A stretch of DNA of 31,510 nt from a bacterium (GCA_039793385.1 JBAMLU010000055.1:1-31510); one strand, 5' to 3'; shown: positions 4,038 through 24,762, numbered from the stretch's first letter. The notes: generated by a model not told the origin, from the sequence alone. Made by a program: numbers and translations.

Positions 4038-4060
4038 ATTTTTACGAAAGGAGGGTTACT

Positions 4061-4345: not shown

Positions 4346-4349
4346 ACAA

Positions 4350-7768: not shown

Positions 7769-8515
7769 CTAATCTACCACATTTTCAAGCTCGCCCGCTT
7801 TTCCCCATCCCTCTTTACCATCCTTAATCCTTATTCTTGCCCATTCGTCGCGCCTTTCAAGTATAACCACTTCTGTACCCTCATGAAGACTAAATAAAAG
7901 CTCGCTTGTCTCGCCTGGTGCCGAACGAACATGAAACTCAGGAGTTATTATAATAGCAGTCCTGGTTTCCCAATCGTCAGATTTCTTAAATGCATAAATA
8001 GAAACAAAAACTAAAAGCGCTATCCCAAAGCCCAGGCACAGATTTTTCAAAATCCTTCCACCGTTGAAAATGGTAAAAATCCCAAATATAGTTGTAAGAA
8101 CTGAAAGGATAATTATCAAAAATATGAGCTCCCTAAACGAGAGAAGACCGATAATTGATGAGTAAATTTTATATAGAAATCCTGTCCGAACCGACTTTAT
8201 ATCATCCCTCAGGAAAGATTCAGCGAATGCAAGATTGTATTTGATTTCCTTGCTGCGGGGTGCAAGAATCAATGCTTTTTTGTAATTAAGTATGGTTTTC
8301 CCGAGCTTCCGCATCTTAAAATAAGCATTGCCAAGGTTATAATATATATCGGGGTTGTGCCCATATTTTTTAATTGCAATTTCATAATACACTGCCGCCG
8401 AATCATATTGAGCTTCCTCGTAAAATTTATTGCCGATGTTGTAAAAATTGTTCTCTGTGGCTCCAATGGGTATAAGTATTGCCATAACAAAAAAGAGCAA
8501 AAGCGTTTTTCTCAT
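7769..8515 (-). CDS. batE: BatE-like protein (signal peptide, TPR, two TM, C-terminal SH3b)
   Basis: TPR (YYNLGNAYFK..LGKTILNYKKAL); SH3-like VRSAPG....LFSLHEGTEV..W.RI...GKEGW; last gene of the bat run. Confidence 0.85.
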   Translation of the reverse strand: MRKTLLLFFVMAILIPIGATENNFYNIGNKFYEEAQYDSAAVYYEIAIKKYGHNPDIYYNLGNAYFKMRKLGKTILNYKKALILAPRSKEIKYNLAFAESFLRDDIKSVRTGFLYKIYSSIIGLLSFRELIFLIIILSVLTTIFGIFTIFNGGRILKNLCLGFGIALLVFVSIYAFKKSDDWETRTAIIITPEFHVRSAPGETSELLFSLHEGTEVVILERRDEWARIRIKDGKEGWGKAGELENVVD

Positions 8516-10302
8516 TTGAGCTCTTTCGATAGGGTTTTGAGTAGTTTTTCGGCTTTAGATATAAGGGAATCCCTATTGATTATAGAACTACTTGAAGGAG
8601 CAAAGCGAGCAAGTTCGAGCGTATTAAAGAAAGAGCGGAGTTCATCAAGAATCCGGTCATCACTCCCGCGCTCTTTTAATTCTCTAACGAGATCCTCAAC
8701 AAGCGAACCCTCAGCAAGATTGAGCTTATCCACAATGAACCTGAAAAGAGCATCATAAATGAACCCGAAACATTCCGAATCTTCTTTTTCTTTTTTCGCT
8801 TTTTTAAGCCTTTCCTTTGCAACCCTATATGCACGGCTCGAACGATAGAAAGCGATATCGCTTATAAGCCTTTGTCTTCTTCGCTTTATTGCTACTCCCA
8901 ATGCAATTGAAAATAATTCTAAAGGAAAAACAAGGAAATAAACAGCTGGAACGGAAATAAGGCTTGAGACTCCCCTTATATATGGTTTGTTTGGTTTTAT
9001 ATATAAGATATCCTTGCCATACAATTGTAGTGCCTGCTTTGTTGGCGCATATGCCATTGTGGGCAGTGCCGGAAATTCTTTGCCTTTAAGAACGGTTATA
9101 TTGATGGGTTGTGTTGAAACAGTTCTATATTCCTCTTTCGCAGGATTGAAATATGAAAATGTAATGGGCGGTATAACGAAATTTCCTGTTTCCCTTGGCA
9201 TAAGCACTATTTCGAATTCTTTGTTATTCCCCTTTACAGTTGAATGGCTTTCGTATCTTTCGAAAACAGGTGGAAGCTCAAGCTTAGGTTCCTGAATTCC
9301 ATCAAGATTGCCCTTGCCTGAAATAACGACCTTCAGCGTAAACGCTTCATTTGTTTTTATCTCCTTCTTATCTAATGACGCAGAGATTGTGAATTCTCCG
9401 ACAGCGCCGCTAAAATCTGCTGGTTTTCCCTTTTCTGGAAGGGGCAAGATTTCAATCTCAACGGGTTTTGATGTGATTGTTATCTGCTGGGTTCTCCCCC
9501 AGAAGTCGAAAATATCTCTTGGAGGAAGCTGGATAACACCAACAAGTTCAAGGGGTTCTATTCTCTTTTTGCCTGTGCTCACACCATAAATTTTGTATCG
9601 TGAAAGCAACGCAGAAGAATATCTTATACCATTTATAACTTTTGGCTGATATTCGAGCGACTTTGCAGTGTAATCCGTGCTTACCCAGAAACCCTCCATC
9701 TTTGCATCTTTAGAGACCGACAATTGCATAAGATTGAGCCTCGTGTAGAGCCAGAACTCAACCGTTATCTCCTCACCAACATAAGCTTTTTTCTTGCTCG
9801 CCCAGCAAGAGACAAATACCTTATTGCCAGTTTCAGCTTCTGTGCCAAATCTTGGTTCGGCTCTCTTTCCTGATTGTTGTGGCATAGTTTGTTGTGGTGC
9901 TGCCTGCCCACCAGGAAAAACCTCAACTGTTATGGGCTCCGTTGTATAAGTGTTCCCTCCAATGTTTATTGAAAAAGAGGGGATGGTCAGTTTACCGGTT
10001 TTTCTTGGCGAAAGAATATATATGAAATTCTTTGAAACCTTTGTCTCCATCTTTCCACCTATAATATTTATCGATGTTGAGCTTGAAGTTGTTGAGCCGA
10101 GGATTGCCCAGTCAGGCATATCAGGAACATTTGGTGGCGGAACGGAACCAATGTTCGCGCCCTCAACAGTAACAGTTAATTGTACCTGATCGTCTTCTGC
10201 TATGCTTGTCCTATCAACGGAGGAGGTGAAATTTATCTTTTGAGCGATAAGTTCTGAGAAAAACAAAGCAAGAGTAATTATAATTTTACCAGTCCTTTTC
10301 AT
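8512..10302 (-). CDS. batD: BatD-family protein (periplasmic Ig-like repeats, one TM, cytoplasmic tail)
   Basis: SVDRTSI..DQVQLTVTV, YILSPRKTGKLTIPSF, FSGAVGEF and FSYFNP motifs. Start moved from GTG 10317 to ATG 10302, which follows GGAGG and overlaps the batC KDW-stop. Confidence 0.88.
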   Translation of the reverse strand: MKRTGKIIITLALFFSELIAQKINFTSSVDRTSIAEDDQVQLTVTVEGANIGSVPPPNVPDMPDWAILGSTTSSSTSINIIGGKMETKVSKNFIYILSPRKTGKLTIPSFSINIGGNTYTTEPITVEVFPGGQAAPQQTMPQQSGKRAEPRFGTEAETGNKVFVSCWASKKKAYVGEEITVEFWLYTRLNLMQLSVSKDAKMEGFWVSTDYTAKSLEYQPKVINGIRYSSALLSRYKIYGVSTGKKRIEPLELVGVIQLPPRDIFDFWGRTQQITITSKPVEIEILPLPEKGKPADFSGAVGEFTISASLDKKEIKTNEAFTLKVVISGKGNLDGIQEPKLELPPVFERYESHSTVKGNNKEFEIVLMPRETGNFVIPPITFSYFNPAKEEYRTVSTQPINITVLKGKEFPALPTMAYAPTKQALQLYGKDILYIKPNKPYIRGVSSLISVPAVYFLVFPLELFSIALGVAIKRRRQRLISDIAFYRSSRAYRVAKERLKKAKKEKEDSECFGFIYDALFRFIVDKLNLAEGSLVEDLVRELKERGSDDRILDELRSFFNTLELARFAPSSSSIINRDSLISKAEKLLKTLSKELK

Positions 10303-10960
10303 GATATTCGCCTCCACGGATAGGAAGCTCCCGCTGGTTTTGAAGGTTCTTATCGCTTTGGTCTATAAGGTTGAGAATCCTTTCAGCATCCTCCTTAGAA
10401 ATTTCCTCCTTCTTCTCACCTGAGCCACCTTTTTGAGTTGTATCTGTGCCCGTTGTGTCAGGTTGGGGTTGCTGTGATTGCTGATGTTGTGCTCCGCCCT
10501 GTGATTGCTGAGCTTGTGCTTGCGGCTGCTCCTCCTTCTTGGCAAGCTCCTTTAAAAGGGCACGGGCTAACTCAAGATTATATTTCGCATCCTTGTCGTC
10601 GGGGTCATATTCGAGCGATTTCTTATAACACTCTATAGCCTTTAAAAGAGAATCGCTCTGAAAATATGAGTTGCCAAGACCATACCATATCTTCGCTAAC
10701 AAATGGTTATCCCTTGCTTTTTCCGCCGCTTTTTGATACTCATGGACCGCTTTGTCATATTTCTTCTGCTTATAAAGAGCGGACGCCATATTATAATGCA
10801 CGATTGGTGATATTGGGTCATCAAGCTGGGCGTTCTGAAAATTCTCAAGAGCTTTCTCGAAATTCCCTCTTTCGTACTCCTTAATTCCGTTTTTCACTGA
10901 TGACCAGGGTGATGCGATAAGCAAGATAGGAAACATCACTAAAAACATTACCCCTTTCAT
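10286..10960 (-). CDS. batC: BatC-like TPR protein
   Basis: Signal peptide, three TPRs, AKYNLELA, Q-rich linker, ISKEDAERILNLI and a terminal EKDW. Confidence 0.85.
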   Translation of the reverse strand: MKGVMFLVMFPILLIASPWSSVKNGIKEYERGNFEKALENFQNAQLDDPISPIVHYNMASALYKQKKYDKAVHEYQKAAEKARDNHLLAKIWYGLGNSYFQSDSLLKAIECYKKSLEYDPDDKDAKYNLELARALLKELAKKEEQPQAQAQQSQGGAQHQQSQQPQPDTTGTDTTQKGGSGEKKEEISKEDAERILNLIDQSDKNLQNQRELPIRGGEYHEKDW

Positions 10961-11967
10961 CCTTTTCTCCTTCGTCTTTCGGGCAAAATCTCCTCAATTA
11001 TAAGAAGAATAAGTGCAAGTGCGAGCGGATATTGAAACCTCTCCTCGAACTGTGCAAACCTCTCAACCTTTATCTTTTTCTTCTCCATTTCCTCTATTTC
11101 GTTGAATAAAGCCTTAAGTTCAGCCTGACCGGGTGATGCTCTGAAATATCTTCCATCAGTTTCGAGTGCTATTTTCTGAAGAGTTATCTCGTCAAGAAGG
11201 GTTGTAATCACATTCCCATCTTTGTCCTTTTTATATCCGATAAAATTCCCGCTTTTATCCCTCATCGGGATAGGCGCACCTTGAGGGTCCCCGATTCCTA
11301 TCGTATAAATCCTTATCCCATCTTCCTTAGCCTTCTTTATCTCCGTGTCAAGATTGCCCTCATGACTTTCGCCATCGGTAATAATCACGATAGCTTTATA
11401 TTTTCTTTCCCTGTCTACGAATGCATTTCTTGCTATTTCAATTGCGCGTGGTATGTTTGTTCCCTGAGCAGGAAAATCCTCAGGGCTCACGGACTCAAGA
11501 AGCATTGATGCTGCATTGTAATCGGTCGTTAGAGGGCAGAGCAAAAAGGCATCACCAGCAAAAACAACTATCGCAACCCTATCACCTTTAAGACCATTTA
11601 TAAATGACTGGAGCTCATATTTCGCCCTAATGAACCTGTTTGGTTTAAGGTCCTCAGCATACATAGAGTTTGAGAGATCAAGCGCAATAACGATATCAAT
11701 CCCTGTTCGCTCGACTTCCTCAAGTTTTGTTCCTATCTGCGGACGAGCAAGCGCAACAACCAGAAACGCATAAGCAAAACAAATGAGAGCTTGTTTCAGC
11801 CTCCGATTCCTCATTGATACCATCTCCATAAGCCTTTTTAATAGCTCCAGCTCACCAAATCGGGAAAGCAAGTTTTTTTTCATTCGTTCAACTATGATAA
11901 AAAATATTATGAGAGCCGGTATGCCAAGAAGTCCCCATAGTATATTTTGATTTGCAAACCTGAACAT
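10957..11967 (-). CDS. batB: BatB-like membrane VWA-domain protein
   Basis: N-terminal MFRFA...TM...LARPQ; MIDAS DLSNS...GTNI...ITDG; C-terminal ERFQYPL TM. Confidence 0.88.
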   Translation of the reverse strand: MFRFANQNILWGLLGIPALIIFFIIVERMKKNLLSRFGELELLKRLMEMVSMRNRRLKQALICFAYAFLVVALARPQIGTKLEEVERTGIDIVIALDLSNSMYAEDLKPNRFIRAKYELQSFINGLKGDRVAIVVFAGDAFLLCPLTTDYNAASMLLESVSPEDFPAQGTNIPRAIEIARNAFVDRERKYKAIVIITDGESHEGNLDTEIKKAKEDGIRIYTIGIGDPQGAPIPMRDKSGNFIGYKKDKDGNVITTLLDEITLQKIALETDGRYFRASPGQAELKALFNEIEEMEKKKIKVERFAQFEERFQYPLALALILLIIEEILPERRRRKG

Positions 11968-11976
11968 GGTTTTGTT

Positions 11977-12990
11977 CTATGGTAGTTTTTTGAGATATGT
12001 ATTTGATAGAATGAGCTCACCAAGCAATAAAATAAGTACAAGGCTCATCGGAACCCCGGCGAGCTCTTTATACTGAACAAATCTCTGCACCTCGATTTTT
12101 GTTTTCTCCATCTCGTTTATTTCCTTATATATGCGCCTTAGTTTTTCTGTGTCTGTAGCCCTGAAATACTTTCCACCAGTCTCCATTGCTATTTTTTGTA
12201 GAAGTTCCTCATCTATTTCGACGGGCATCTGGACATACCTTTTCCCAAGGAATGGGTCTTCAATAGGATAGAGCGCATAACCCTCAATCCCCATACCAAT
12301 AGTATAGACCCTTATACCGAATGTTTTAGCCAATTTCGCAGCGGTCAAAGGATCTACCTCACCGGTATTATTCCTTCCGTCAGTAAGAAGGATTACGACC
12401 TTGCTTTTTGCGGTAGAATTCCTGAGCCTGCTAACAGCATTTGCAAGTGCAACACCTATCGCTGTTCCATCCTGAATAATACCTGTTCGAGCCTTGCTTA
12501 ACAGATTCAAAAGCATGCCATAATCCACCGTTAACGGGCATTGAGTAAAAGCCTTTGCAGAAAAAAGGACCAATCCTATTCTATCGTTTTCTCTGCCCTT
12601 AACGAACTCCGCAGCTACCTGTTTTGCGGTTTCTATCCTGTTGAGCGGTTTGAAATCCTCAGCGAGCATTGATGTTGAGCAGTCGAGCACAAGCATTATA
12701 TCTATGCCTTTTGTGTAAGATTTCTCAACGCTTCTACCAGCCCGTGGTCTCGAAAGAGCAAGAACAAGAAAAACAAATAGAAGCATCCTTAGGTATGGAA
12801 GGAGGAGTCTCATTTTTACCCTACCGCTTGCCTGTAATCCTTTAAGGCTCTGTAAGCTTGAGAATCTTATCGCACCACTATGCTTGAATTTTCTCTCAAA
12901 AAATATAAGGAGTGGGATAAGAACGAGCAAAAGCAAGAACCATGGTGATGCAAACTCAATAAACGAGCCTCCTGTAAGAGGGATTCTCAT
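11977..12990 (-). CDS. batA: BatA-like membrane VWA-domain protein
   Basis: FASPWFLLLL and LALSRPR N-terminus; MIDAS DCSTS...GTAIG...LLTDG; GIRVYTIGMG; ETGGKYFRA. Confidence 0.9.
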   Translation of the reverse strand: MRIPLTGGSFIEFASPWFLLLLVLIPLLIFFERKFKHSGAIRFSSLQSLKGLQASGRVKMRLLLPYLRMLLFVFLVLALSRPRAGRSVEKSYTKGIDIMLVLDCSTSMLAEDFKPLNRIETAKQVAAEFVKGRENDRIGLVLFSAKAFTQCPLTVDYGMLLNLLSKARTGIIQDGTAIGVALANAVSRLRNSTAKSKVVILLTDGRNNTGEVDPLTAAKLAKTFGIRVYTIGMGIEGYALYPIEDPFLGKRYVQMPVEIDEELLQKIAMETGGKYFRATDTEKLRRIYKEINEMEKTKIEVQRFVQYKELAGVPMSLVLILLLGELILSNTYLKKLP

Positions 12991-13937
12991 ACAGTACCTA
13001 CCTCCTCCTTTTCAATAACAGGTTCCTCATGTTGTTTAGGCATTGTTTCGATGACAAAAGTTTTAGCATCATCAAGAAGTTTCTCGCTTGTGCTTGTCTC
13101 GGGGATGAATTTGGCAAATTTCACATAGTCGGCTGTTCGAAGGATTTCGGTAAGAGTTATTATAGGGGTCTCTTTTATGCCGTTTGAGGCTAAGGCATCT
13201 ATTATCTCTGAGCTCACAAGCTCAAGTGCGGGGATATTAAGAGCATCCTCTATGTATTGGCGAAGGATTTCGGTTAATTCGATGTAGTATGTTTTTATCC
13301 CTTTAGGGTCGCTTTCGGGTGGAACTTTAAGATTTGCAAGCCTTTCGAGGGCAATTTCGTGTGGCGGTCGCATCTGAGCCTTTATCTCGAATAGCCCCTT
13401 TAACTTCTTCCTCTTAACCATAAAGAATATCAAAACACCAGCTAAAACAGCAGCAAGCGGTATCGCAAAGTATAATACCCTCTTCCACGGAAACGGATAT
13501 GCTAATGGTTTTTTAATATCCCTAAGCTGCCAGCTTGACCTCTCTCCTTTTAATAGTGAAAGAACATTTATAGTTATCGGTTGCGTGATTATAACACCCT
13601 CTTTTCCAGCGGAATCCTTATACGCAAATCCTGTAGGTGGAATCTCGAACTTTCCTGTGTCGTAAGTTGATATAACAAAATTGAATATAACAAGTTCTTC
13701 ATTGCCCTTGCTAATAGGTTTCCCTATCTGGAAATCCTTTATTTCGAACTGCCCAAGGTTATGTCCGATAGGTGGTTTTAAAACTGTGTAGCCTTTAGGA
13801 TATCGCATAGTGACCTTATAATTTATTCTATCGCCGATGTAAACCTGGCTCTTATCGACGCTGCTTTCGATACTCACAAGTCCAAGCGCGATTGAACTCA
13901 ACAACATAAGGAGGATAACGCTTGGCAAGTATTTCAT
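12987..13937 (-). CDS. Bat-associated type I membrane protein (BatD-like Ig domain, TM, cytoplasmic helical tail)
   Basis: Signal peptide; SSVDKSQVYIGDRINY; LRDIKKPL; TM; PHEIALERL...YYIELTEILRQYI...ADYVKFAK; position immediately upstream of batA. Confidence 0.8.
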   Translation of the reverse strand: MKYLPSVILLMLLSSIALGLVSIESSVDKSQVYIGDRINYKVTMRYPKGYTVLKPPIGHNLGQFEIKDFQIGKPISKGNEELVIFNFVISTYDTGKFEIPPTGFAYKDSAGKEGVIITQPITINVLSLLKGERSSWQLRDIKKPLAYPFPWKRVLYFAIPLAAVLAGVLIFFMVKRKKLKGLFEIKAQMRPPHEIALERLANLKVPPESDPKGIKTYYIELTEILRQYIEDALNIPALELVSSEIIDALASNGIKETPIITLTEILRTADYVKFAKFIPETSTSEKLLDDAKTFVIETMPKQHEEPVIEKEEVGTV

Positions 13938-14917
13938 TATTCACCCCCGCCGAACTTTATAGCTGGAGCGGAAATCCCGAGACTTTCCGGGTATATCTCG
14001 ATCTTTTCTCCCGCAACAAGCTTTTGAATGAGCTTGCTCTCGTTCTCTTTAGCCTTTGTTCTCATATATTCTTCAACAAGTTCGCCCCGCACATCCTCAA
14101 ATTTCTTACCTTTGTAAATACTATCCTTTTTAGCATCATATATTAGTTTCAGCTCGTATTCTGTTGGGGTTGGTATTGCCTGGCTAATTTCTTTCTCATA
14201 TGCCATCTGAATAAGAAGGTCTTGCTCGATTTTTTCTATGCGGCTCAAATATTTCGGCTCCTTGTTCAATCCCTCACGGAGCGCCAGATTATAAAGCAGT
14301 TCCCTTGTAATGAGATTATTCCTGAGAAATTCTAATCTGCCTTGAGGGGTTGTATATTTTGCTTTAAGGCTTTCTGGAAGGTCGTTTATTGCGTCGTTAA
14401 GGTCGTTTAAAGTGATAGGACGGGTGCCTACTGATGCAACAACCTTATTTGAGGCTTGTGGCGGGTTAATTGATGTTACCTGTTGAAGAAGTGCTTGTGC
14501 ATCGGTGTACCGTCCCAATTTCTCAAGGCATACCACAATCCGCTGGTTTATCTCGGTTGTATAAGGATTATCGGGATAAAGGGTCCTTAGCTTTATGTAT
14601 TTTGCGAGCGCCTTTGCATAGTCGCGAAGATTGTCCATATAAAGGTTGGCAAGGATGTAAAGCATGTTTATTCTCCTTTTAAGCTCAAGCCTCGAGTCGG
14701 TTAGTATCCGCTCATATTCATAAGCAGCCTCAGAATATAGCCCATTATTTGAAAGGTTATTAGCATAGGTTATCGCTTTATCTATATCCTCAACGCCTTC
14801 TCCTTTGTTTATTCTGCCAAGTTTGAATAGTATCACAACGAGAAGCAAAATGGAGAAACTGATTGCTGTTATAGTTATAAATCCCATTATATTTCGGTTT
14901 TTATTACTCTTTTCCAT
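13937..14917 (-). CDS. Membrane-anchored TPR protein fused to a SurA/PrsA-type chaperone domain that lacks the parvulin domain
   Basis: N-terminal TM; TPR-like helices (aa ~45-150); VVASVG.RPITLNDL...RELLYNLALREGL..EP...IYDAKK..Y-KG-KKFEDVRGEL...KIEIY follows the PrsA N/C-domain pattern with no HIL/SxD parvulin motifs. Confidence 0.65.
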   Translation of the reverse strand: MEKSNKNRNIMGFITITAISFSILLLVVILFKLGRINKGEGVEDIDKAITYANNLSNNGLYSEAAYEYERILTDSRLELKRRINMLYILANLYMDNLRDYAKALAKYIKLRTLYPDNPYTTEINQRIVVCLEKLGRYTDAQALLQQVTSINPPQASNKVVASVGTRPITLNDLNDAINDLPESLKAKYTTPQGRLEFLRNNLITRELLYNLALREGLNKEPKYLSRIEKIEQDLLIQMAYEKEISQAIPTPTEYELKLIYDAKKDSIYKGKKFEDVRGELVEEYMRTKAKENESKLIQKLVAGEKIEIYPESLGISAPAIKFGGGE

Positions 14918-14926
14918 TTTAACCCC

Positions 14927-15823
14927 TTATAATCTTCCTGCTCTACGCTTGAAATAAGCAACAAGGGGTTCGATATAATTTCTGCCCGTGACAATCTCGA
15001 TATAATCAACCCCGATCGACTTGAATACCTGTGTTATTTGAGATAACGAGTTTTTTGAGCGGATTCTGAATGTTTCGAGTAAAGATGTATCGTATGTATC
15101 GACAAGGACCTTTTCGCCACTTTCAGCGTCCTCAAGTTCGATTATACCTACCCTTGCCAGTTCAAGTTCGCGTGGGTCACGAAGGATTATTGGAACAAGG
15201 TCATGCTTTCTGGCGGCAATTCTCATTTCTTTTTCGTATCCGCTGTCGAGGAAGTCGGAGATAAGAAAGAGAATTGCCGAACGCTTGAAAAGATTGTTAA
15301 CAAACCTCAGAGCAAGCCCAATATCTGTTTGTTTCCCTTGAGGTTCGCAATAGAGTATCTCCCTTATTATTCTTAGTACATGCTCTTTTCCTTTTTTAGG
15401 TGGAACAAGCCTTTCAATCCTATCGGTGAAAATCAATAGTCCAACTTTATCATTGTTCTTCGTGGCTGAGAAAGCAAGGAGGCTTGCGAGTTCTGCTGTG
15501 AGTTCGCTCTTTAACTCCCCTATAGTCCCGAATTGCCCTGATGGAGACATATCAGCAAGAACAAAAACAGTAAGCTCTCGCTCCTCCTCAAAAAGCTTCA
15601 CATATGGTTTTCCCTGCCGAGCTGTAACATTCCAGTCTATAGTCCTTATATCATCCCCAATTTGATATTCCCTTACCTCAGCGAACTCAACCCCTCTACC
15701 CTTAAATGTAGAGTGATACTGTCCGGCAAAGAGGTCGTTAACAGCCTTTCGTGTTCTTATATCGATGAGCCTTACTTTACGAAGTATATCTTGGGGAGTG
15801 AGTTTTTTCTCGTTGTTTTTCAT
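14927..15823 (-). CDS. DUF58 domain protein (VWA-like partner of MoxR)
   Basis: GQYHSTFKGRGVEFAEVREYQIGDDIRTIDWNVTAR; DMSPS and ISDF MIDAS-like residues. Confidence 0.93.
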   Translation of the reverse strand: MKNNEKKLTPQDILRKVRLIDIRTRKAVNDLFAGQYHSTFKGRGVEFAEVREYQIGDDIRTIDWNVTARQGKPYVKLFEEERELTVFVLADMSPSGQFGTIGELKSELTAELASLLAFSATKNNDKVGLLIFTDRIERLVPPKKGKEHVLRIIREILYCEPQGKQTDIGLALRFVNNLFKRSAILFLISDFLDSGYEKEMRIAARKHDLVPIILRDPRELELARVGIIELEDAESGEKVLVDTYDTSLLETFRIRSKNSLSQITQVFKSIGVDYIEIVTGRNYIEPLVAYFKRRAGRL

Positions 15824-16809: not shown

Positions 16810-16817
16810 ATCTCCTC

Positions 16818-17723
16818 CTATTTGTATTCGAGAAGTTTTTGTAATGTCAAAAGGGCATCATCAATCCACTCCTCATCTGCGCTGTATCCTCCAAATCTGA
16901 CAAGATTGCTGTGTTCAAGAAACCTTTCAACATTTTTTGTGAGGCTCTCGGGAAATTCGAGCTCGAAAAACTTTTCGCTCACCTCTTTCGGGCTCCTTCC
17001 GCTTATATCGTATGAATATTTCTCTAAAATGTATGTGCGGAGGATCTTCTCGAGGGCGGAAAAGAATTGAGCCCGAGTAACAGAGTTTCGTGTTCCCTCA
17101 ATGCTTTTGAGTTCCTCGAGCAACCGTTTCTCAACAGGAACAATCTCCTCAACAACCTCCTCTTTTTTAGCTCCTCTTTTTGAAAGAAAAATGAAAAAAA
17201 CCCCACCGGTTGCAATTATAACAAGAGCAATTATCCAGGCGTATATCGGGATTTTCCCCCCTTTTTTTCTCGGCTCGAGAACTGTTATAGAGAATCGGGT
17301 TGATGTTAATTGTCCGGTATAATTTGTGGGGCTAAAGAAGTATTCAACTTTGGTTGGCTCAATATATGCCATACCGAGCGAAGAAGGGGCATATTTGAAT
17401 ATGAACTCCTTAACGCTAAGCGTTACACCACTTCCGCTCTCACTTTTTGTAGCGCTACCCGAACCGACAAGTTTCAGATTGCTTACCGAAGGTAAAAAGT
17501 CCTTGATTGTATAAAGAGTAGGGTCACCTTCAATAATAACCTTGACCGTAAATGCGACCGTATCATCAAGTCGGATAGTGTCGGCTGATAGAGCTGCCTC
17601 AAGCCTGATATTCATAGGTGTTGATTCTGGATTTGTTGTATCAGGAGTGGCAAGGGTATCAAGCCCAAAACTCAACGAATAGAGTAAAACCAAAAATATA
17701 ATTGCCCGCTTCACACCTTTCAT
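16818..17723 (-). CDS. Second Bat-associated type I membrane protein (BatD-like domain, TM, cytoplasmic helical tail)
   Basis: Signal peptide; LSADTIRLDDTVAFTVKV; TM YAWIIALVIIATGGVFFIFL; FFSALEKILRTYI...LVRFGG tail. Start moved from 17750 to ATG 17723 (ATGA overlap with the DUF4340 stop). Confidence 0.72.
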   Translation of the reverse strand: MKGVKRAIIFLVLLYSLSFGLDTLATPDTTNPESTPMNIRLEAALSADTIRLDDTVAFTVKVIIEGDPTLYTIKDFLPSVSNLKLVGSGSATKSESGSGVTLSVKEFIFKYAPSSLGMAYIEPTKVEYFFSPTNYTGQLTSTRFSITVLEPRKKGGKIPIYAWIIALVIIATGGVFFIFLSKRGAKKEEVVEEIVPVEKRLLEELKSIEGTRNSVTRAQFFSALEKILRTYILEKYSYDISGRSPKEVSEKFFELEFPESLTKNVERFLEHSNLVRFGGYSADEEWIDDALLTLQKLLEYK

Positions 17724-19459
17724 CTTGGCTTGATAACCTCCTTGAACCATTTCCTTATGTTATTAACCACATTTGATGAAACCTCATATATATAAGGTTG
17801 CTTTTCAACATAGGCGTAGTAGTATGGTCCTTTTTCCTTCCCGATTTTTACCTCCACCCGTTCTGCTGATGTTGTTCCAATTGCAATTGTTATCGATGGC
17901 TTCTCTAATCCATATTCAGATTTAGGTTTGTCAAGAGCTCTTTTCGTATAGAACTGTAAGTTCTTGAACTGACTAAGCAGGTCTGTGAGTTCTTTTAAGT
18001 CCTCTATCCGAATATTTTTAGGTGAAACAAGGCTCCATTGTTTTTCGGGCGAGCTCACAAGCTTATACACAACACCATCAGAATCAGCAAGCTCAATTGT
18101 AGCGATTTCATCCGTCCTTATTGGGAAAATCTTTCTCTCGATGAAATAACTCGCCCCCCGGCCAGTGTAATCTAAAATCCTTGCAGGCACAAGGAATATC
18201 TCATCTCTACCGCTCAATTGAGCATATGCGTGCGTTTCGTCCTTTTTGTTCCCTAAAAAAAGATGTTCGCTTTTCGCCGTATCAGGACCAAAAAAGCGGA
18301 TAAATCTCTTATCAGAAACCTTTTTCCTATCGAATTTCAAGAAAGAATCGACAATTGAACCTGTTATATCTGATATAAGCATAGATACCTTAGATTCATC
18401 TGCAAGCAATGTTTCTGGTTTAACTATTTTCCATTTGTTGTTGAGCTTCACCATAGCAAGCGATACCGTATCACCTTGAATTTCAATCCTTTCTGGCGAT
18501 GTTATTTCGAATAGTTTTCTCGACCTGAAATCATCAACAGGCTTTAGAATGGCTTCAATCATAGATTTTTGAACAGCAAACACCGGGAGCATCTCGGGAT
18601 TGTAAACGTGGTATAGTTCTTTGTTATCAGCAACTTGATTCCCGAGGATAAGCGTTTTTTGTTTCCCCCCTATTGTCCACAGGTTAACATATGCAAGTGG
18701 TGATGTAAACCCATATTTGGCGAAGCCTGATGTATCCTCAGCGACGAATTTCTGGGCTCGGGCTGATGTTAAATCGGAAAGGAGCCTCGAAACATATTCA
18801 TCATTAGCTTTGTCCTTTATAGGTGAACCTATACGCCAAATACCAGTGGAATCCTTATAAACTTCCAAAGTAGCATCCTTCCTTTTAATAGTAAACTTCT
18901 GTACCTCGCCCGCATATATATCGATTATCCTTTTATCGCGGAACTCTGTAAGAGACTTGTTGAATTGGTTATAGATATTATCCTGAATTAGCCTCAGCCC
19001 TTTCGAGTGTGATGATATAGCGTAGTAATTGTTTCCTGTTGGAACAGGGTCACCGAGCTGGAGCATATAAGTTGAATCGTTAGCGAGTTTAATTTTGATA
19101 GTAAGAGATGGTGGATTGAGACCATATTCATCTAAATTCATCGCAGAATCCATTATCGTTTTTACCCATTTCGAATCGTACAATGTCTGGACCAAGGAGT
19201 TCATAACCCCCTGGTCGGCGAGGTATGTTATAGGTGATATTATTTGCCAGTTGCCAGTCGAGTCTTTAACAATAGTGGTTTTGCCGAAAGCGTTATCTAT
19301 CTCAACCGTTTTAACACTCTCGGGTCGCCAGAATAAAACCTTGCTCTCGCGTTCCTCTATGAGTTTTTTCTCCTTGCTTGGCTTTATCTCAAAGAAGTAA
19401 ACGAAAACAAAGAGAAGCACAAAGATGATAGCCAGTATTACTGTTCTCAAAGCTTTCAT
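17720..19459 (-). CDS. DUF4340 domain protein with four tandem repeats
   Basis: N-terminal membrane anchor; four ~130-aa units, each with W-x4-P (WQIISP, WRIGSP, WKIVKP, WSLVSP) and an xx(L/I)G strand; YG(L/F)xxP in three of the four. Confidence 0.8.
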   Translation of the reverse strand: MKALRTVILAIIFVLLFVFVYFFEIKPSKEKKLIEERESKVLFWRPESVKTVEIDNAFGKTTIVKDSTGNWQIISPITYLADQGVMNSLVQTLYDSKWVKTIMDSAMNLDEYGLNPPSLTIKIKLANDSTYMLQLGDPVPTGNNYYAISSHSKGLRLIQDNIYNQFNKSLTEFRDKRIIDIYAGEVQKFTIKRKDATLEVYKDSTGIWRIGSPIKDKANDEYVSRLLSDLTSARAQKFVAEDTSGFAKYGFTSPLAYVNLWTIGGKQKTLILGNQVADNKELYHVYNPEMLPVFAVQKSMIEAILKPVDDFRSRKLFEITSPERIEIQGDTVSLAMVKLNNKWKIVKPETLLADESKVSMLISDITGSIVDSFLKFDRKKVSDKRFIRFFGPDTAKSEHLFLGNKKDETHAYAQLSGRDEIFLVPARILDYTGRGASYFIERKIFPIRTDEIATIELADSDGVVYKLVSSPEKQWSLVSPKNIRIEDLKELTDLLSQFKNLQFYTKRALDKPKSEYGLEKPSITIAIGTTSAERVEVKIGKEKGPYYYAYVEKQPYIYEVSSNVVNNIRKWFKEVIKPR

Positions 19460-19460
19460 T

Positions 19461-20993
19461 TTAACCTCGCCTTCTCCACCAGACTATTCCGCTTGTGAGA
19501 AGTGCGCAAGCGGGAAGAATAACAATTAAAAGATAAAGGATGAGTTTTTGTGTTCTTGCGGTTAATGTTATTCGCCTATCTTCTTCCTCAACAGGGCGTA
19601 TTCCTATCCGTTCTTCCTCAAGGACAAGCCAGCTTATGGAATTCATAAAGAGGTCCTTGTTTCCAGAGAATTTGTAATAGGTGTTTGATGGAAAGTCAGC
19701 ATCACCGAAAGCCACTATCCTTGTTTCCTTCTTTTCTGTTGAAAGTTTCTGTGCGCTAACCGCAACCGCAACAGGTCCGGGTGTATCTTTCCCTTTATCC
19801 ATCGCTATTTTCTTTGTTCTATAATCGATCTCACCCCAGCTTTGTGGACTTGTTCGTGCTAATTCAACAACAGAGTATCCTTTAGTATCGTCAGCCTTTT
19901 TTAAAGACCTTGTTGTAGGGAAAAGCGTCGCCACATTGAAATCCTTCGTTATCGGGCTGAACGCATCGTATGAACCGACTATAGGCATAAGTTCATTCGT
20001 TCCAAAAAGGATTCCCGCCCCAGAAACATCAACAACAATATCATCATTTACCTTAATCCCGTAGTTCGAAAGCCAATTAGCGAGTGTATCGAGGTCTCCC
20101 GGTTCAAATAGGACGAGAAGCTTTCCACCATTTTCAAGATATTCGTCAAGTTTCTTTAACTCTGCGGTAGTGTAGTCGTATTGTGGCGCCGCAATAACAA
20201 CAAGCGATGCATCATCAGGCACTTTACCCGCATAAAGGAAAAAGAGCGTATCCACAATGAAGTTCTCGTCTGTCAGAAGTTTGGTGAGCTCAGAATAGCC
20301 ATCCTTGTCAGTCGAATACGGGCTTCTTTCTCCTTTGCCCTTTACAAAGTAAACCTTTGGCTTTGTGGTTTTAGTCGCGCGGATTATCGCATTAGTGAGG
20401 CTCTCCTCTGTAACCATATTCTCAATCTTCTCTCTTCTTTCGCCCGCTGCAACAACAACAGTATTATACGATTTAACACCAAATTCCCTTGCCTTATGAG
20501 GCTCTCTTTCGATATCTACCCTATAAATGTGTATCTTTGGAGAGTAATAGCTATATCGCCCAAGAAGCTCCATTATTCGTTCGCCTGTTTGCTCTACTCT
20601 TGGGTCACCCTTCCCTGTGAAAAGGTAGATATTTATATCCATCTTAAGATTCTTCAACTCCTTCCGTGTTTGGTCTGCAAGGCTGTAAGCCTTATTTGCT
20701 GTCGTATCGAAAGCGAATTTATGACGCGCGGAAATGAAGTTCACAACGACAAGAATCCCCAAGAATATGAGAATTAAAGCTAAAGCATTCAAACCAGATT
20801 TAGTCGCCCGACGAGTGAAAAATTCACGCTGCTCAACCAAAAAATAAATAAGATAGGCAAGCCCTAATAAAGCGCCAGCAAGAAGCGAAATCTTTGAAGA
20901 TAAAACCAACCCCTTATTTACCCAGTAAAGAATTGCTCCAACGATCAAACCTATAACACCAAGAAGTCCTATTAAAGAGAAAGTTCTTTTCAT
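19461..20993 (-). CDS. GldG-like ABC transporter auxiliary (periplasmic) component
   Basis: Three N-terminal TMs; FDTTANKAYSLADQT; KVYFVKGKGE; VIAAPQYDY..ELKKLDEYLENGGKLLVL; RIVAFGDADF.SN......GNKDLFMNSISWL; C-terminal TM. Confidence 0.85.
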   Translation of the reverse strand: MKRTFSLIGLLGVIGLIVGAILYWVNKGLVLSSKISLLAGALLGLAYLIYFLVEQREFFTRRATKSGLNALALILIFLGILVVVNFISARHKFAFDTTANKAYSLADQTRKELKNLKMDINIYLFTGKGDPRVEQTGERIMELLGRYSYYSPKIHIYRVDIEREPHKAREFGVKSYNTVVVAAGERREKIENMVTEESLTNAIIRATKTTKPKVYFVKGKGERSPYSTDKDGYSELTKLLTDENFIVDTLFFLYAGKVPDDASLVVIAAPQYDYTTAELKKLDEYLENGGKLLVLFEPGDLDTLANWLSNYGIKVNDDIVVDVSGAGILFGTNELMPIVGSYDAFSPITKDFNVATLFPTTRSLKKADDTKGYSVVELARTSPQSWGEIDYRTKKIAMDKGKDTPGPVAVAVSAQKLSTEKKETRIVAFGDADFPSNTYYKFSGNKDLFMNSISWLVLEEERIGIRPVEEEDRRITLTARTQKLILYLLIVILPACALLTSGIVWWRRRG

Positions 20994-20994
20994 T

Positions 20995-21777
20995 TTATCC
21001 CCTCCATCTCCAACTTTCTACTGCTTGTCCTGTAAGGAATAATCCCAATGCAGTAAAGGAAAGGAAGTAGATTATTCCTGATGTATCGATTACACCTCTT
21101 ATGAACCTTGTTAGGTGTGATGATAGTGATAGATAGTCGAGGGTTGTTGCGATCCATCCGCCTGAAACGATCGATGCCCAGTTAACAACCCAAAGAACGA
21201 GAAGCAAAGCAAATGATATTATAGCTGAAAGGATTTGATTTTCTGTTAGGGCTGATATAAAAAGTCCAAGTGCGACAAAAACCGCTCCCATAAGCGCAAA
21301 TCCAAGATAGCCCGAAAGAATTGGCAGTATATCTGGTTTTCCAAGCAAGATGAGTATCAACTGATATATAAATGTAAATGCAAGCATAACAAGGAACATT
21401 GTATATGCGGAGAGAAATTTTGCTGCGATCAATGAGGTGTTCGTTATGGGGGATGTTATAAGAAGTTCAAGGGTACCGAGCCGCTTCTCCTCAGAAAAGG
21501 AGCGCATCGTCACAAGCGGTATAAGAAAAAGCGATATTACCGCAAGATTATAGAAGAAAGGCTGAACGACCCAGACATTCACATTCATAGGTTGTGGCAT
21601 CCTCCTATACATCTGCGCAATCTGCACGCTCTGAATACAGGCAAGCGAAAAATATGATAGAATGTTATAGAAAAAGAAGCCGGTAAAAAAAAGGAATGCC
21701 GCAAGAATGATATAAGCAAGTGGTGTAGAGAAGTAGCTTTTGAGTTCCTTTCTCCAAATAGCCCATAATGCTCTCAT
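20995..21777 (-). CDS. ABC-2 type permease, GldF-like
   Basis: KELKSYFSTPLAY; LIPLVTMRSFSEEKRLGTLELLITSP; about 6 TM helices; RGVIDTSGIIYFLS. Confidence 0.9.
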   Translation of the reverse strand: MRALWAIWRKELKSYFSTPLAYIILAAFLFFTGFFFYNILSYFSLACIQSVQIAQMYRRMPQPMNVNVWVVQPFFYNLAVISLFLIPLVTMRSFSEEKRLGTLELLITSPITNTSLIAAKFLSAYTMFLVMLAFTFIYQLILILLGKPDILPILSGYLGFALMGAVFVALGLFISALTENQILSAIISFALLLVLWVVNWASIVSGGWIATTLDYLSLSSHLTRFIRGVIDTSGIIYFLSFTALGLFLTGQAVESWRWRG

Positions 21778-22727
21778 TGTTCCACCCCTTCCTCCATCGT
21801 TATAAGGTGTAAAAAAACCTCCTCAAGGCTCACACCAACCGGAGTGAGTTCGTACAAATCCCATTTTCTAAAGATAATAAATCTTGAAAGATCAGCTCGA
21901 ATATCAACATCCTTTTCGGTTTCAACAAGAAAAGTTGTTCCTTTCGATATCCCTTCATTAAAAATTCTTACTGATTTAACTTCTGTGAAGTTTTCGAGTT
22001 CTTTTTTCATTGTTTCAGGGTTATCGCCACCAAGTGTAATTCTAAGAGTATGTGTTCCTTTTAGCTTCTTTGCGAGTTCCTCTGGTGTATCCTCAGCTAT
22101 GATTTTCCCTTTATGGATTATAAGTACTCTGTCGCAAGTTACGCTCACCTCAGGAAGTATATGTGTAGAAAGCATAATTGTGTGGTCCCTGCCAAGTTCC
22201 CTTATAAGCTTCCGAACCTCAACAACTTGCTTTGGGTCAAGTCCTATTGTGGGTTCATCAAGGATGAGGATTTTGGGGTTGTGAAGGAGCGCTTGAGCTA
22301 CACCGACTCTTTGACGATACCCTTTGGATAGATGTCCGATCTGCTTGTGAATTACATCGCCAAGCTTGCATTTATCCACAACATAATCTATGCCCTCTTG
22401 CAACGATTTCTTCGGTACCTGCCGCAGTTCGCCCATAAATTTGAGATAATCAAGCACCTTCATATCTGAATAAAGCGGTGGATTCTCAGGTACATACCCT
22501 ATCTGCTTTCTAACACTGAGTGGTTCCTCAACAACATCATACCCAGCCACATAAGCCTTCCCTTCACTAGGAGGTATAAATGTTGTGAGAATTCTCATCG
22601 TTGTCGTTTTCCCTGCTCCATTAGGACCAAGGAAACCAACGATTTCTCCCTCTTTGACTGTAAAATTTATATGGTCAATCGCAACAACTGGACCATATCT
22701 TTTTGTTAGCCCGTCAACCTCTATCAA
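21774..22727 (-). CDS. ABC transporter ATP-binding protein, GldA-like
   Basis: TTG start after GGGGGA; Walker A GPNGAGKT; signature LSKGYRQR; ILDEPTIGLDP; STHILPEV. Confidence 0.93.
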   Translation of the reverse strand: MIEVDGLTKRYGPVVAIDHINFTVKEGEIVGFLGPNGAGKTTTMRILTTFIPPSEGKAYVAGYDVVEEPLSVRKQIGYVPENPPLYSDMKVLDYLKFMGELRQVPKKSLQEGIDYVVDKCKLGDVIHKQIGHLSKGYRQRVGVAQALLHNPKILILDEPTIGLDPKQVVEVRKLIRELGRDHTIMLSTHILPEVSVTCDRVLIIHKGKIIAEDTPEELAKKLKGTHTLRITLGGDNPETMKKELENFTEVKSVRIFNEGISKGTTFLVETEKDVDIRADLSRFIIFRKWDLYELTPVGVSLEEVFLHLITMEEGVEQ

Positions 22728-22754
22728 TCTTCCCCCTTTCTATTAAGGATTGGT

Positions 22755-24218
22755 TTAATCGACTCTCACAGGGATATAAAATACATTAGCGTCCCGTTTT
22801 ATCAAGAAAAGATTTATTGGGCGAAGCGACGCTGTAGCTCGGCTGAAACTTTCGTAGTTTGTGGTTCTTATTCCGTTTATTTCAAGGATAATATCGCCAT
22901 CACGAAGCCCAGCTTTTTGTGCAGGAGAACCGGGTTCAACCGACTTTATAATCATTCCACCTGATACACCATAGTTATCCGCTTGATAGGGCGAAAGTGG
23001 CGAAACGCTTATACCAAGCTTCTTTTTCGTCTCTTTTGATGGTTCCTCTTTTTGTGCCACTCTCTCTTCAGATGGAAGCTCTCCGAGAACCGCCTGAATA
23101 TTCCTCCTCGAGCCATCTCTTATAACTGTGAGGTTTACAGTTGTGCCGGGTTTCTTAAGTGCTATATTGTTTCTAAAATCTGAGCCATTAACAAATTCCT
23201 TTCCATCAAGCTCTATTATAACATCACCCTGCTTTAGCCCAGCCTTTTCCGCAGGGGAATCACTTAACACCTCACTTATTATAACCCCTTTTGCCTCTTT
23301 AAGCCCAATAGCCTGCGCAATGTCATCAGTAACATCCTGGATTCGCACGCCCAACCATCCTCTAACAACCTTGCCCTTGGTGATAATCATCTCCATCACC
23401 TGCTTAGCCATATTCACGGGGATAGCAAATCCGATTCCCTGGTAGCCACCGGATGATGAAGCTATTGCTGTATTGATGCCGATAAGCTCACCTTTGAGAT
23501 TGACAAGCGCACCACCTGAATTGCCGGGGTTTATTGCGGCGTCTGTCTGAAGGAAATCCTCATAATCGGCAATGCCGACCCGTGAACGCCCCTTTGCGGA
23601 TATTATTCCGAGCGTTGATGTATGCTCAAGCTCGAATGGGCTCCCTATCGCTATCACCCACTCACCAACCTCAAGGGAATCGGAATCCCCCATTCTAACA
23701 GCCTTAAAATTTTCGCCCTCTATTTTAAGTACCGCCAGATCTGTTTTTGCATCGCTACCTATAAGCTTTGCATCGTAGAACTTATTCTCCACCCTAACCT
23801 TTATCTCCTGTGCACCTGCAATAACATGATTATTCGTCAAAATATACCCATCTGAAGAAACTATTACCCCACTTCCAAGCCCGCGTTGCTTGTATTCCTG
23901 TTCCCGCCGAGGACCAAATCCGAAAGGCGACTCAAAAAATGGCGAGAAGAAAAAGAAATCATCAAACCCGGGTATCTCTACCTTAACTACCTTTGTGCTT
24001 GTTATTGTCACAACTGAGGGCGTGACCTCTTTTATAACCTTTGAAATATTCTCTGTTGTTGGAAGAGGTTTACCGTTTTCATCGAGCTTTTCCTGGGTTT
24101 CAATACTTACGGCAGGGCTCGGAAGTTTGAGGCTCGTAGAGATGGCAATGCCTATTATTAGCCCTACCAAAAGGAATACAAACGCCCCTGTTGTATATAT
24201 AAACCTACGCCCTTTCAT
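22755..24218 (-). CDS. degP: Do/DegP-family serine endoprotease with two PDZ domains
   Basis: Catalytic triad TNNHV / KTDLAV / GNSGG; N-terminal TM; RGWLGV and KKLGISV PDZ starts; SD AGGAGG. Confidence 0.93.
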   Translation of the reverse strand: MKGRRFIYTTGAFVFLLVGLIIGIAISTSLKLPSPAVSIETQEKLDENGKPLPTTENISKVIKEVTPSVVTITSTKVVKVEIPGFDDFFFFSPFFESPFGFGPRREQEYKQRGLGSGVIVSSDGYILTNNHVIAGAQEIKVRVENKFYDAKLIGSDAKTDLAVLKIEGENFKAVRMGDSDSLEVGEWVIAIGSPFELEHTSTLGIISAKGRSRVGIADYEDFLQTDAAINPGNSGGALVNLKGELIGINTAIASSSGGYQGIGFAIPVNMAKQVMEMIITKGKVVRGWLGVRIQDVTDDIAQAIGLKEAKGVIISEVLSDSPAEKAGLKQGDVIIELDGKEFVNGSDFRNNIALKKPGTTVNLTVIRDGSRRNIQAVLGELPSEERVAQKEEPSKETKKKLGISVSPLSPYQADNYGVSGGMIIKSVEPGSPAQKAGLRDGDIILEINGIRTTNYESFSRATASLRPINLFLIKRDANVFYIPVRVD

Positions 24219-24585
24219 TCACACCTCCTGCTTTTTTATGTATTCTTTCTATTAAATCAAGCAAGCTCAAAAGTTCCACAGGCTTCTCCAAAAAAGCGCT
24301 TGCACCAAGCTCTTTTGCTTTTGACTCGGTTTCCCAAGCCTGATTAGCTGAGACAAGGAAAACATCTATTCCGGGCATCACAGATTTAAATCGCTTTAAA
24401 AGCTCCATCCCATTTATATCAGGAAGGTCTATATCCAAAATCACAACCTCAGGCTCCTCTTGTATGAGTTCGAGTGCCTCCTTGCCAGTTTTTGCAAGGA
24501 GACACTCATATCCGTTAGCGCGGAGGAAATCTCTCATAGTCGCTGCACTATCTATATTGTCATCAACAACCAGAACCCTAACCAT
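24205..24585 (-). CDS. Single-domain response regulator (receiver only)
   Basis: VLVVDD, ILDIDLPDINGM (phospho-Asp), LVSA and FLEKP; no output domain; overlaps the degP start by 14 nt. Confidence 0.92.
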   Translation of the reverse strand: MVRVLVVDDNIDSAATMRDFLRANGYECLLAKTGKEALELIQEEPEVVILDIDLPDINGMELLKRFKSVMPGIDVFLVSANQAWETESKAKELGASAFLEKPVELLSLLDLIERIHKKAGGVNERA

Positions 24586-24670
24586 ACCATATAAAAAATA
24601 AGCAATTTTTATGCCATTCCTGAAAAGCCCTTTTACAAGCCTTTTTTCCCATTCCCTATCATCTGGATTG

Positions 24671-24715
24671 TGTCAGACTGACAATATCACCCATTCAAAT
24701 TTGACAAAATGACAA
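24671..24715. promoter_or_regulatory. Putative operator/promoter cluster in the divergent intergenic region
   Basis: Palindrome TGTCAG-A-CTGACA (24671-24683); TGACAA at 24679, 24702 and 24710; TTGACA at 24701. Confidence 0.4.
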
Positions 24716-24762
24716 TTCAATTTGTATTGCATTATTATCCCTCATTTTTATTTTATTATACA

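Follow-up and report, generated by a model that had tools for sequence, protein, structure and literature searches.

Sixteen consecutive open reading frames (ORFs), all on the minus strand and running from 24585 to 7769, make up the gene cluster studied here, which lies in a 31,510-nt stretch of DNA (GCA_039793385.1, JBAMLU010000055.1:1-31510; hereafter the window) from an uncultured organism of a hot-spring metagenome. The cluster splits into three separable modules: a receiver (REC) gene with a DegP-type protease gene; a GldA/F/G-like ATP-binding cassette (ABC) set with a DUF4340 gene; and an extended Bat operon built around MoxR and DUF58. The Gld-like ABC and Bat systems probably work together, because the transporter set recurs in Bat operons at three places in distant relatives, and judged from gene content and arrangement the cluster is probably a real operon in which the two are functionally coupled. 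With about even confidence, we read it as an envelope-maintenance operon under predicted sigma-54 control, whose three modules act in one pathway. The sixteen genes are as follows.

24205 to 24585, minus strand: g01, stand-alone receiver, a CheY-like response regulator of 126 aa (Pfam Response_reg, E 1.8e-23)
22755 to 24218, minus strand: g02, membrane-anchored periplasmic HtrA/DegP protease with two PDZ domains (Pfam Trypsin_2 and PDZ)
21774 to 22727, minus strand: g03, GldA-like ABC ATPase with a TTG start (Pfam ABC_tran)
20995 to 21777, minus strand: g04, GldF-like ABC-2 permease with 6-7 transmembrane (TM) helices (Pfam ABC2_membrane_2 and TM scan)
19461 to 20993, minus strand: g05, GldG-like auxiliary subunit (Pfam ABC_transp_aux, DUF7088 and DUF4350)
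17720 to 19459, minus strand: g06, DUF4340 protein (Pfam DUF4340, E 2.2e-64, 4 stretches)
16818 to 17723, minus strand: g07, BatD-like single-pass protein with a signal peptide, a periplasmic beta domain, one TM helix and a helical C-terminal tail
15820 to 16809, minus strand: g08, MoxR AAA+ ATPase (Pfam AAA_3, PF07726, E 4.1e-67, and AAA_lid_2)
14927 to 15823, minus strand: g09, DUF58 protein, cytoplasmic and von Willebrand factor A (VWA)-like (Pfam DUF58, PF01882, E 7.5e-75)
13937 to 14917, minus strand: g10, membrane-anchored tetratricopeptide repeat (TPR) protein with a PpiD/SurA/EpsD-type chaperone N-domain (Pfam TPR and weak SurA_N_3)
12987 to 13937, minus strand: g11, BatD-like/DUF4381-like single-pass protein, LB_053-like (Pfam BatD, 27.1 bits, cut-off 24.1)
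11977 to 12990, minus strand: g12, BatA, with an N-terminal BatA domain, a VWA domain with a metal ion-dependent adhesion site (MIDAS) and a C-terminal TM helix (Pfam BatA, PF07584, and VWA, PF00092)
10957 to 11967, minus strand: g13, BatB, with an N-terminal BatA domain, a VWA domain with MIDAS and a C-terminal TM helix (Pfam BatA, PF07584, and VWA, PF00092)
10286 to 10960, minus strand: g14, BatC-type secreted TPR protein with a Gln/Pro-rich tail and an N-terminal signal-like segment (Pfam TPR_1 and TPR_2)
8512 to 10302, minus strand: g15, BatD, with a signal peptide, two BatD beta domains, one TM helix and a cytoplasmic tail (Pfam BatD, E 2.4e-44, 2 stretches)
7769 to 8515, minus strand: g16, BatE, with TPR, two TM helices and a C-terminal SH3 domain (Pfam TPR_1 and SH3_3; TM scan)

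An annotation made earlier from the DNA alone (the sequence-only reading) had described these sixteen co-directional genes, and all were recovered at the same coordinates on the minus strand. Its 15 junction values were likewise reproduced, being in transcription order -14, +27, -4, +1, +1, -4, +8, -4, +9, -1, -4, +9, -4, -17 and -4 nt (negative values are overlaps), so that nine of the 15 junctions overlap and the widest gap is 27 nt. These values require that g07 starts at the ATG at 17723, which follows an AAGGAGG Shine-Dalgarno sequence, and not at the longest-ORF start at 17750, and that BatD starts at the ATG at 10302, preceded by GGAGG, and not at 10317. Every domain assignment of that reading was confirmed by Pfam, and the Walker motifs, the DegP His/Asp/Ser residues and the three MIDAS sites are all intact; its inventory of two cytoplasmic ATPases, three MIDAS sites, TPR proteins and an intact DegP therefore holds. 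In a hydrophobicity scan four products are predicted to be cytoplasmic (REC, the ABC ATPase, MoxR and DUF58) and twelve to be membrane-anchored or exported.

The evidence for functional coupling comes from the gene order of related loci, which were fetched for comparison and are numbered with the prefix L. The full 16-gene order is kept in L001, the sole close relative, where the DUF4340 protein is 50% identical, and L162 and L163, with 32% identity in DUF4340, retain the join GldG-DUF4340-g07-MoxR. Outside the window clade, two of five GldG modules sit inside extended Bat operons, at different places. The order in L169 is TPR-g07-MoxR-DUF58-PPIase-(ABC-permease-GldG-DUF4340)-g11-BatA-E, where PPIase stands for a peptidyl-prolyl isomerase and the junctions of the module are tight (11 nt and a 4-nt overlap), and that in L171 is TPR-g07-MoxR-DUF58-g10-g11-(ABC-permease-GldG-DUF4340)-BatA-E. 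The ABC module is thus found at three positions in extended Bat operons, namely before g07 in the window clade, between the foldase gene and g11 in L169, and between g11 and BatA in L171; it adjoins a g07/g11-type gene in all three arrangements, with a 4-nt stop/start overlap in two of them. In neighbour-joining trees, L169 and L171 fall by MoxR among extended Bat operons that lack the ABC module (L082, L084, L096) and by GldG beside modules located between rpsO and pnp. Since the lineages stand apart in these trees, with ABC-less operons between them, the linkage either arose several times or survived rearrangement.

The protease gene is tied to both of the other modules. HtrA lies directly upstream of ABC-permease-GldG-DUF4340, on the same strand, in all 61 Chthoniobacterales loci with enough flank, and REC-DegP lies directly upstream of g07-MoxR, without an ABC module, in L164 and L167, with L166 showing DegP and ending before REC. 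DegP thus has a link of its own to each of the two remaining modules, which closes a triangle of pairwise links. In L003 (5299-11857) HtrA-ABC-permease-GldG-DUF4340 forms a discrete five-gene unit with opposite-strand genes on both sides.

Two predicted control elements stand before the first gene.

24601 to 24616, minus strand: predicted sigma-54 (-24/-12) promoter, TGGCATAAAAATTGCT, with GG-N10-GC spacing, 15 nt before the g01 ATG
24671 to 24683, no strand assigned: dyad, a predicted enhancer or upstream activating sequence for a sigma-54 activator, TGTCAGACTGACA, of the form TGYCA-N3-TGRCA, 55 nt upstream of the -24 element

The element TGGCATAAAAATTGCT is near-consensus and is the sole exact match in the 31.5 kb (0.11 expected), and no second good sigma-54 site was found within the cluster. 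It is of the TGGCAC-N5-TTGCW type with GG-N10-GC spacing, and a sigma-54 element also precedes the first cluster gene in four further, orthologous loci (L001 4781-4795, L164 6809-6823, L167 6799-6813 and L168 8692-8706). The dyad lies 55-120 nt upstream of the sigma-54 element in all five; it has two matches in the window against 0.12 expected, and only nine of the 174 fetched loci contain any match to it. A gene encoding a GAF-Sigma54_activat-HTH_8 protein lies two genes from the cluster in L001, and no sigma-54 activator gene was found within the 31.5-kb window; the sigma-54 element is absent at L169 and L171. Taken together, the promoter and the dyad support a transcription start before g01 and would make expression enhancer-dependent and signal-responsive. 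The conserved pairing of a sigma-54 promoter with an upstream dyad before this cluster is new here. The leader in the window would be about 5 nt long, without a Shine-Dalgarno sequence. Searches of RNA runs for the window sequence gave no match, the matching runs being hot-spring DNA runs only.

In the ABC module the sequence-only reading had used the name Gld-like, which suits the best NCBIfam matches, GldA, GldF and GldG; all three scores, however, lie far under the equivalog cut-offs. The ATPase g03 scores 315.9 bits with GldA (TIGR03522, cut-off 402.6), the permease g04 scores 148.1 bits with GldF (TIGR03518, cut-off 288.5) and g05 scores 77.0 with GldG (TIGR03521, cut-off 389.85); with Pfam DUF4350 (PF14258), g05 scores 39.5, over the cut-off of 30.4. 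The motifs of g03 are Walker A GPNGAGKT, Walker B ILILDE and the signature LSKGYRQR, the last identical to that of Flavobacterium johnsoniae GldA. In an AlphaFold2 (AF2) model of g05 (pLDDT 85.4), N- and C-terminal TM helices flank a periplasmic thioredoxin-like domain and a GIFT/ThuA-like flavodoxin domain, and a Foldseek search with this model gave the IFT52 N-domain as top match (TM-score 0.77), followed by OST48 and ThuA-like proteins. The DUF7088 domain (residues ~100-190) has the thioredoxin-like fold, with weak sequence matches to thioredoxins; g05 has no CxxC motif and a single Cys in the whole protein.

For g06, the AF2 model (pLDDT 85.8) shows an N-terminal membrane anchor followed by 4-5 tandem alpha/beta repeats in the periplasm. 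A profile search of the PDB with g06 returned no sequence match, and Foldseek gave merely weak sliding-clamp-like matches (TM-score 0.12-0.17), with no convincing solved homolog. We considered DUF4340 as an Lpt-like lipid bridge and ruled this out, the modelled repeats being alpha/beta and not beta-jellyrolls. The module is defined in the window by ABC_tran, ABC-2 permease, PF09822 and PF14238 genes that follow one another on a single strand, and the same four genes are found in L002-L081, L169-L172 and L174; a scan of viral contigs with the GldG alignment gave no match. In L170 (8046-12759) and L172 (4114-8879) the module lies between rpsO and pnp, within the conserved nusA-infB-rbfA-truB-ribF-rpsO-pnp block, and in L174 (3284-6138) DUF4340 is followed, with a 4-nt overlap, by a Peptidase_S13 gene (PBP4-type D-Ala-D-Ala carboxypeptidase), which is another envelope or peptidoglycan link of the module.

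The extended Bat operon has the order g07-MoxR-DUF58-g10-g11-BatA-E and begins at the 4-nt overlap between the DUF4340 stop and the g07 start. We assign g07 and g10 to it because g07 is a paralog of g11 and g10 is the operon-position counterpart of the L169 PPIase. The relation of g07 to g11 covers the full length and required profile-profile comparison (hhalign, family against family, 99.8% probability, E 1.2e-28), plain BLASTP giving no match between the two; both are laid out like BatD, with a signal peptide, a beta domain in the periplasm, a single TM helix and a helical tail. An ortholog of g07 in L082 exceeds the Pfam BatD cut-off, and g07 lies directly upstream of MoxR in 11 loci. The gene g11, which also has a weak NCBIfam match to LB_053, is the usual gene between DUF58 and BatA and was present in 50 of the 80 nearest MoxR loci. 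The g10 protein matches the N-region of EpsD-family PPIases in NCBIfam and aligns (E 1e-39) with the first 300 aa of a 409-aa Rotamase-domain (parvulin PPIase) protein at the equivalent operon position in L169. As g10 has no parvulin domain, it is a chaperone-only PpiD/SurA/EpsD-like protein, in keeping with the foldase or holdase named previously.

The remaining Bat genes are complete in their motifs and order. MoxR (Walker A GVPGLAKT, Walker B IILADE) is followed with a 4-nt overlap by DUF58, whose MIDAS is intact (DMSPS at residue 91, with Thr and Asp downstream). Both membrane VWA proteins with a BatA domain also keep the MIDAS, BatA with DCSTS at residue 103 and then the Thr/Asp motifs GTAIG and TDGRNN, BatB with DLSNS at residue 97 and then GTNIP and TDGESH. 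They are followed by the TPR protein BatC, by BatD with its BatD domains and TM helix (residues 454-472), and by BatE with TPR and SH3, the last gene, whose stop lies 3 nt from that of a convergent Na/Ca-exchanger gene. Four extended Bat operons without REC-DegP have a small YfiO/BamD-like TPR lipoprotein gene before g07 (L082 2913-3431, L096 2890-3321, L169 639-1208 and L171 2412-2828). Inserts occur in the operons of the clade that is sister to the window clade by MoxR: between MoxR and DUF58 there are a GGDEF protein and an unknown protein of 200 aa, between the VWA genes an S-adenosylmethionine-dependent methyltransferase, and before BatC a membrane protein of the BrkB family (L164 11003-12451, 15577-16383 and 17488-18402; L166-L168 alike).

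At the head of the cluster, REC is the first gene in L001, L164 and L167 as well as in the window. The protease gene g02 overlaps it by 14 nt and encodes a member of the HtrA/DegP (Do) family, with a TIGR02037 score of 499.6 (cut-off 416.2), the catalytic motifs NHV, DLAVL and GNSGG (His, Asp, Ser), two PDZ stretches and an N-terminal TM helix.

Outside the cluster, the window carries at 29812-31374 (minus strand) a PKD-domain protein with a C-terminal T9SS (type IX secretion system) sorting domain (Por_Secre_tail), which implies an organism of the Fibrobacteres-Chlorobi-Bacteroidetes (FCB) type with type IX secretion. T9SS-type cargo genes also adjoin sister-clade operons (L164 4120-6561, L167 3912-6284). 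The nearest named MoxR proteins are from Zixibacteria, KSB1, Calditrichales, Melioribacter and Elusimicrobia. Divergent from the cluster lies a gene for a 692-aa membrane sulfatase-family protein (lipoteichoic acid synthase/phosphoethanolamine-transferase-like) at 24709-26787 (plus strand), with a counterpart in L001 at 2642-4525 (minus strand); in the window this gene overlaps ftsE by 11 nt, and ftsX follows. A tRNA-Ser(GCT) at 2433-2525 (minus strand) lies on the opposite strand within the 227-nt gap between a gene resembling the pyruvate:ferredoxin oxidoreductase (PFOR) beta subunit and a PD40/LytR_C gene.

A number of observations weigh against an obligatory single system. Neither GldG nor DUF4340 was found in any of the 80 nearest MoxR loci (0/80, even at E 0.05), which are metagenome loci with MoxR of 60-69% identity, the MoxR scan having given none closer than 69%; where the contig is long enough, these loci mostly have the canonical MoxR-DUF58-g11-BatA-E order. 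Bat genes were not found within 10 kb of any of 80 Verrucomicrobial (Chthoniobacterales/Udaeobacter) DUF4340 loci, from a genome-contig scan whose Verrucomicrobia-dominated alignment patterns returned Chthoniobacterales-type loci only. The sister clade (L164, L166, L167 and L168; MoxR 71-72% identity) has REC-DegP-g07-MoxR, or merely g07-MoxR, and no ABC module. Three of the five GldG modules inspected outside the window clade are in non-Bat contexts (L170, L172, L174), and with five modules the frequency of linkage is poorly known. Even in L001 there are gaps of 91 nt at the DegP/ABC border and of 390 nt between g07 and MoxR, inside the Bat module, and Bat deletion in Leptospira gave no phenotype (PMC3557215). 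Because most sampled loci carry one of the two alone, neither the ABC module nor the Bat module needs the other. Compact spacing is also a general habit in the window: other same-strand junctions between unrelated genes measure 50, 227, 23, 4, <=0, 21, 1, 30, -11, 6 and -4 nt, and since unrelated neighbours are equally tight, spacing alone is weak evidence for an operon.

These results bear unevenly on what had been proposed for the cluster. A single transcript with translational coupling is supported in so far as the genes form a co-directional, operon-like unit with a conserved predicted sigma-54 promoter and dyad before g01, their tight packing adding weak evidence. The proposed co-occurrence of GldG/DUF4340 with MoxR-Bat was found at three positions in extended Bat operons and in none of the two sets of 80 loci. 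Of the signs that would have spoken against a single unit, internal promoters or terminators were not indicated, sigma-70-type promoter-like and terminator-like sites in the window being no more frequent than in shuffled sequence; phyletic patterns of the modules, on the other hand, are largely independent, as the sister clade illustrates. The non-coding 390-nt gap of L001 (12673-13062, against 8 nt in the window) may hold a short ORF, and it too contains no promoter-like or terminator-like site and no excess of them over shuffles.

Among other explanations, the main rival is that the modules are co-regulated and mechanistically independent, forming a stress 'super-operon' in which DegP, the GldG-type ABC set and Bat act separately under shared conditions behind one sigma-54 promoter. 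We consider this a real possibility, though short of probable. Each module occurs alone in many lineages, the sister clade has REC-DegP-Bat without the ABC module behind a promoter of equal type, its GGDEF, methyltransferase and BrkB inserts mean that the operon tolerates passengers, and the genome is compact throughout. Three insertion points in divergent lineages are, however, hard to obtain from co-regulation alone; moreover, L169 and L171 keep the linkage without the sigma-54 element, and the ABC module always adjoins a g07/g11-type gene, twice with the 4-nt stop/start overlap. A closer form of coupling is that the GldA/F/G-like ABC set with DUF4340 and MoxR-DUF58-Bat build one physical dual-ATPase envelope machine, in which g07 and g11 would bridge the periplasmic arm of GldG and DUF4340 to MoxR and DUF58, with DegP and g10 as dedicated quality control; this we regard as rather unlikely. 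The 'one trans-envelope apparatus' of the sequence-only reading was in this respect an overstatement. If the machine did exist, two systems that have each gone unexplained for some 25 years, the Bat operon and the GldAFG-type transporters, would share a biochemical role in assembling or stabilising exported envelope proteins.

It seems to us improbable that the ABC module is a genuine GldAFG transporter of the gliding/T9SS kind with an ordinary Bat (aerotolerance) operon merely as its neighbour, in which case the cluster would add nothing new on either, in spite of its best NCBIfam matches, the identical LSKGYRQR signature, the T9SS cargo gene at 29812-31374 and the similar genes adjoining sister-clade operons. 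Its scores are under the equivalog cut-offs, and the linkage to Bat recurs in L169 and L171. We know of no DUF4340 protein that accompanies GldAFG in F. johnsoniae. Homologous modules of four genes are present in Verrucomicrobiota and among named proteins from metagenome-assembled genomes of NC10, Rokubacteria, Acidobacteria and Chloroflexi, and we know of neither gliding nor T9SS in these phyla. A neutral, chance juxtaposition in a compact genome, inherited within one small clade, would fit the short junctions that are normal in the window and the fact that the exact 16-gene order is seen in the window and L001 only, L162 and L163 sharing the central join. It is strongly disfavoured and, in our judgement, very improbable, since L169 and L171 have separate arrangements, the order was kept though DUF4340 diverged to 32-50% identity, and other phyla or clades show DegP in pairwise linkage with each module.

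Under the favoured reading, that of an envelope-maintenance operon with modules acting in one pathway, one transcript would be made when an enhancer-binding protein senses envelope stress or heat/oxidative stress. Acting through GldF, GldG and DUF4340, the ABC motor may then do periplasmic work, mechanical or export, on which the assembly or stabilisation of exported proteins or lipoproteins depends, comparable to the requirement of GldA and GldF for GldJ and GldK in Flavobacterium. From the cytoplasmic side, a MoxR hexamer with DUF58 as adaptor could remodel or load a membrane scaffold of BatA, BatB and the three BatD-type proteins (g07, g11 and BatD), which the TPR proteins would organise; the two motors would most likely meet at the g07/g11-type proteins. 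DegP and the PpiD-like g10 would remove or hold clients that fail assembly.

Both the Bat operon and the GldAFG-type transporters are widespread, with known phenotypes and no known biochemical function. The recurrent, rearrangement-resistant link between them, together with DegP and a PpiD/SurA-like chaperone, narrows the range of hypotheses and points to exported envelope proteins, to their assembly, stabilisation or quality control, and two old puzzles become one testable hypothesis. This hypothesis names a candidate interface, that of g07/g11-type proteins with DUF4340 and GldG, and the predicted sigma-54 promoter and enhancer give a handle on the signal that switches the system on.

Bat operons are known in Bacteroides fragilis, Riemerella, Francisella, Leptospira and Borrelia. 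All canonical parts (MoxR-DUF58-DUF4381/LB_053-like-BatA-B-C-D-E) are present in the window, in canonical order and with AAA+ and MIDAS motifs intact. The window differs in having g07 before MoxR and g10 after DUF58, which mark an extended subtype that only about a dozen of the fetched loci show, and in the upstream four-gene ABC/GldG/DUF4340 module, REC-DegP and the predicted sigma-54 promoter. Published results on a part in stress tolerance differ from one organism to another; in Riemerella heat and oxidative stress induce the operon, which PhoP controls (PMC11834572), and the VWA domain of the BatA-like BB0173 of Borrelia is periplasmic (PMC5700661).

With GldA/GldF/GldG of F. johnsoniae the window shares the three-protein architecture, the best family matches, the identical LSKGYRQR and an FCB-type host with T9SS cargo. 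It differs in scoring well under the equivalog cut-offs and in having the three genes contiguous, with DUF4340 as a fourth, and linked to DegP and MoxR-Bat and not to gld/spr genes. The lipoproteins GldJ and GldK of Flavobacterium depend for their stability on functional GldA and GldF (PMC9127263). Equal to the window in gene order and domains is the widespread uncharacterised ABC ATPase/ABC-2 permease/GldG-type/DUF4340 module; it is embedded in or fused to Bat in the window, L169 and L171, whereas elsewhere it stands alone (between rpsO and pnp, before a PBP4-type peptidase or behind HtrA). The four-gene module was noted in SAR11, where DUF4340 was predicted to form part of the ABC system as a subunit (bioRxiv 10.64898/2025.12.11.693642), and Verrucomicrobium spinosum has a DUF4340 gene that is essential.

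Our literature search found no paper on Bat operons with a GldAFG-like ABC/DUF4340 module, nor on the DegP links, so that in these two respects the 'undescribed system' of the sequence-only reading is without a precedent that we could find. It does have an archaeal forerunner: the arCOG01314 (DUF4350, GldG-like)/MoxR (COG0714)/vWA/Ig-like neighbourhood was predicted in 2015 to encode a secretion or membrane-remodelling complex (Makarova, Galperin and Koonin; PMC5898192). The archaeal system as described lacks an ABC ATPase, a permease, DUF4340, TPR proteins and DegP, and its vWA proteins are secreted Ig-vWA fusions and not BatA/B. The window likewise co-encodes a membrane-anchored GldG-like flavodoxin-fold protein of the DUF4350 type with a COG0714 MoxR, vWA proteins and extracytoplasmic beta-sandwich membrane proteins; its BatD-type beta-domain proteins are analogous to the archaeal Ig-like proteins, a likeness drawn from their description, the GldG part alone having been compared by sequence. 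The cluster extends the archaeal association of GldG-like, MoxR and vWA proteins to bacteria, with an ABC motor added.

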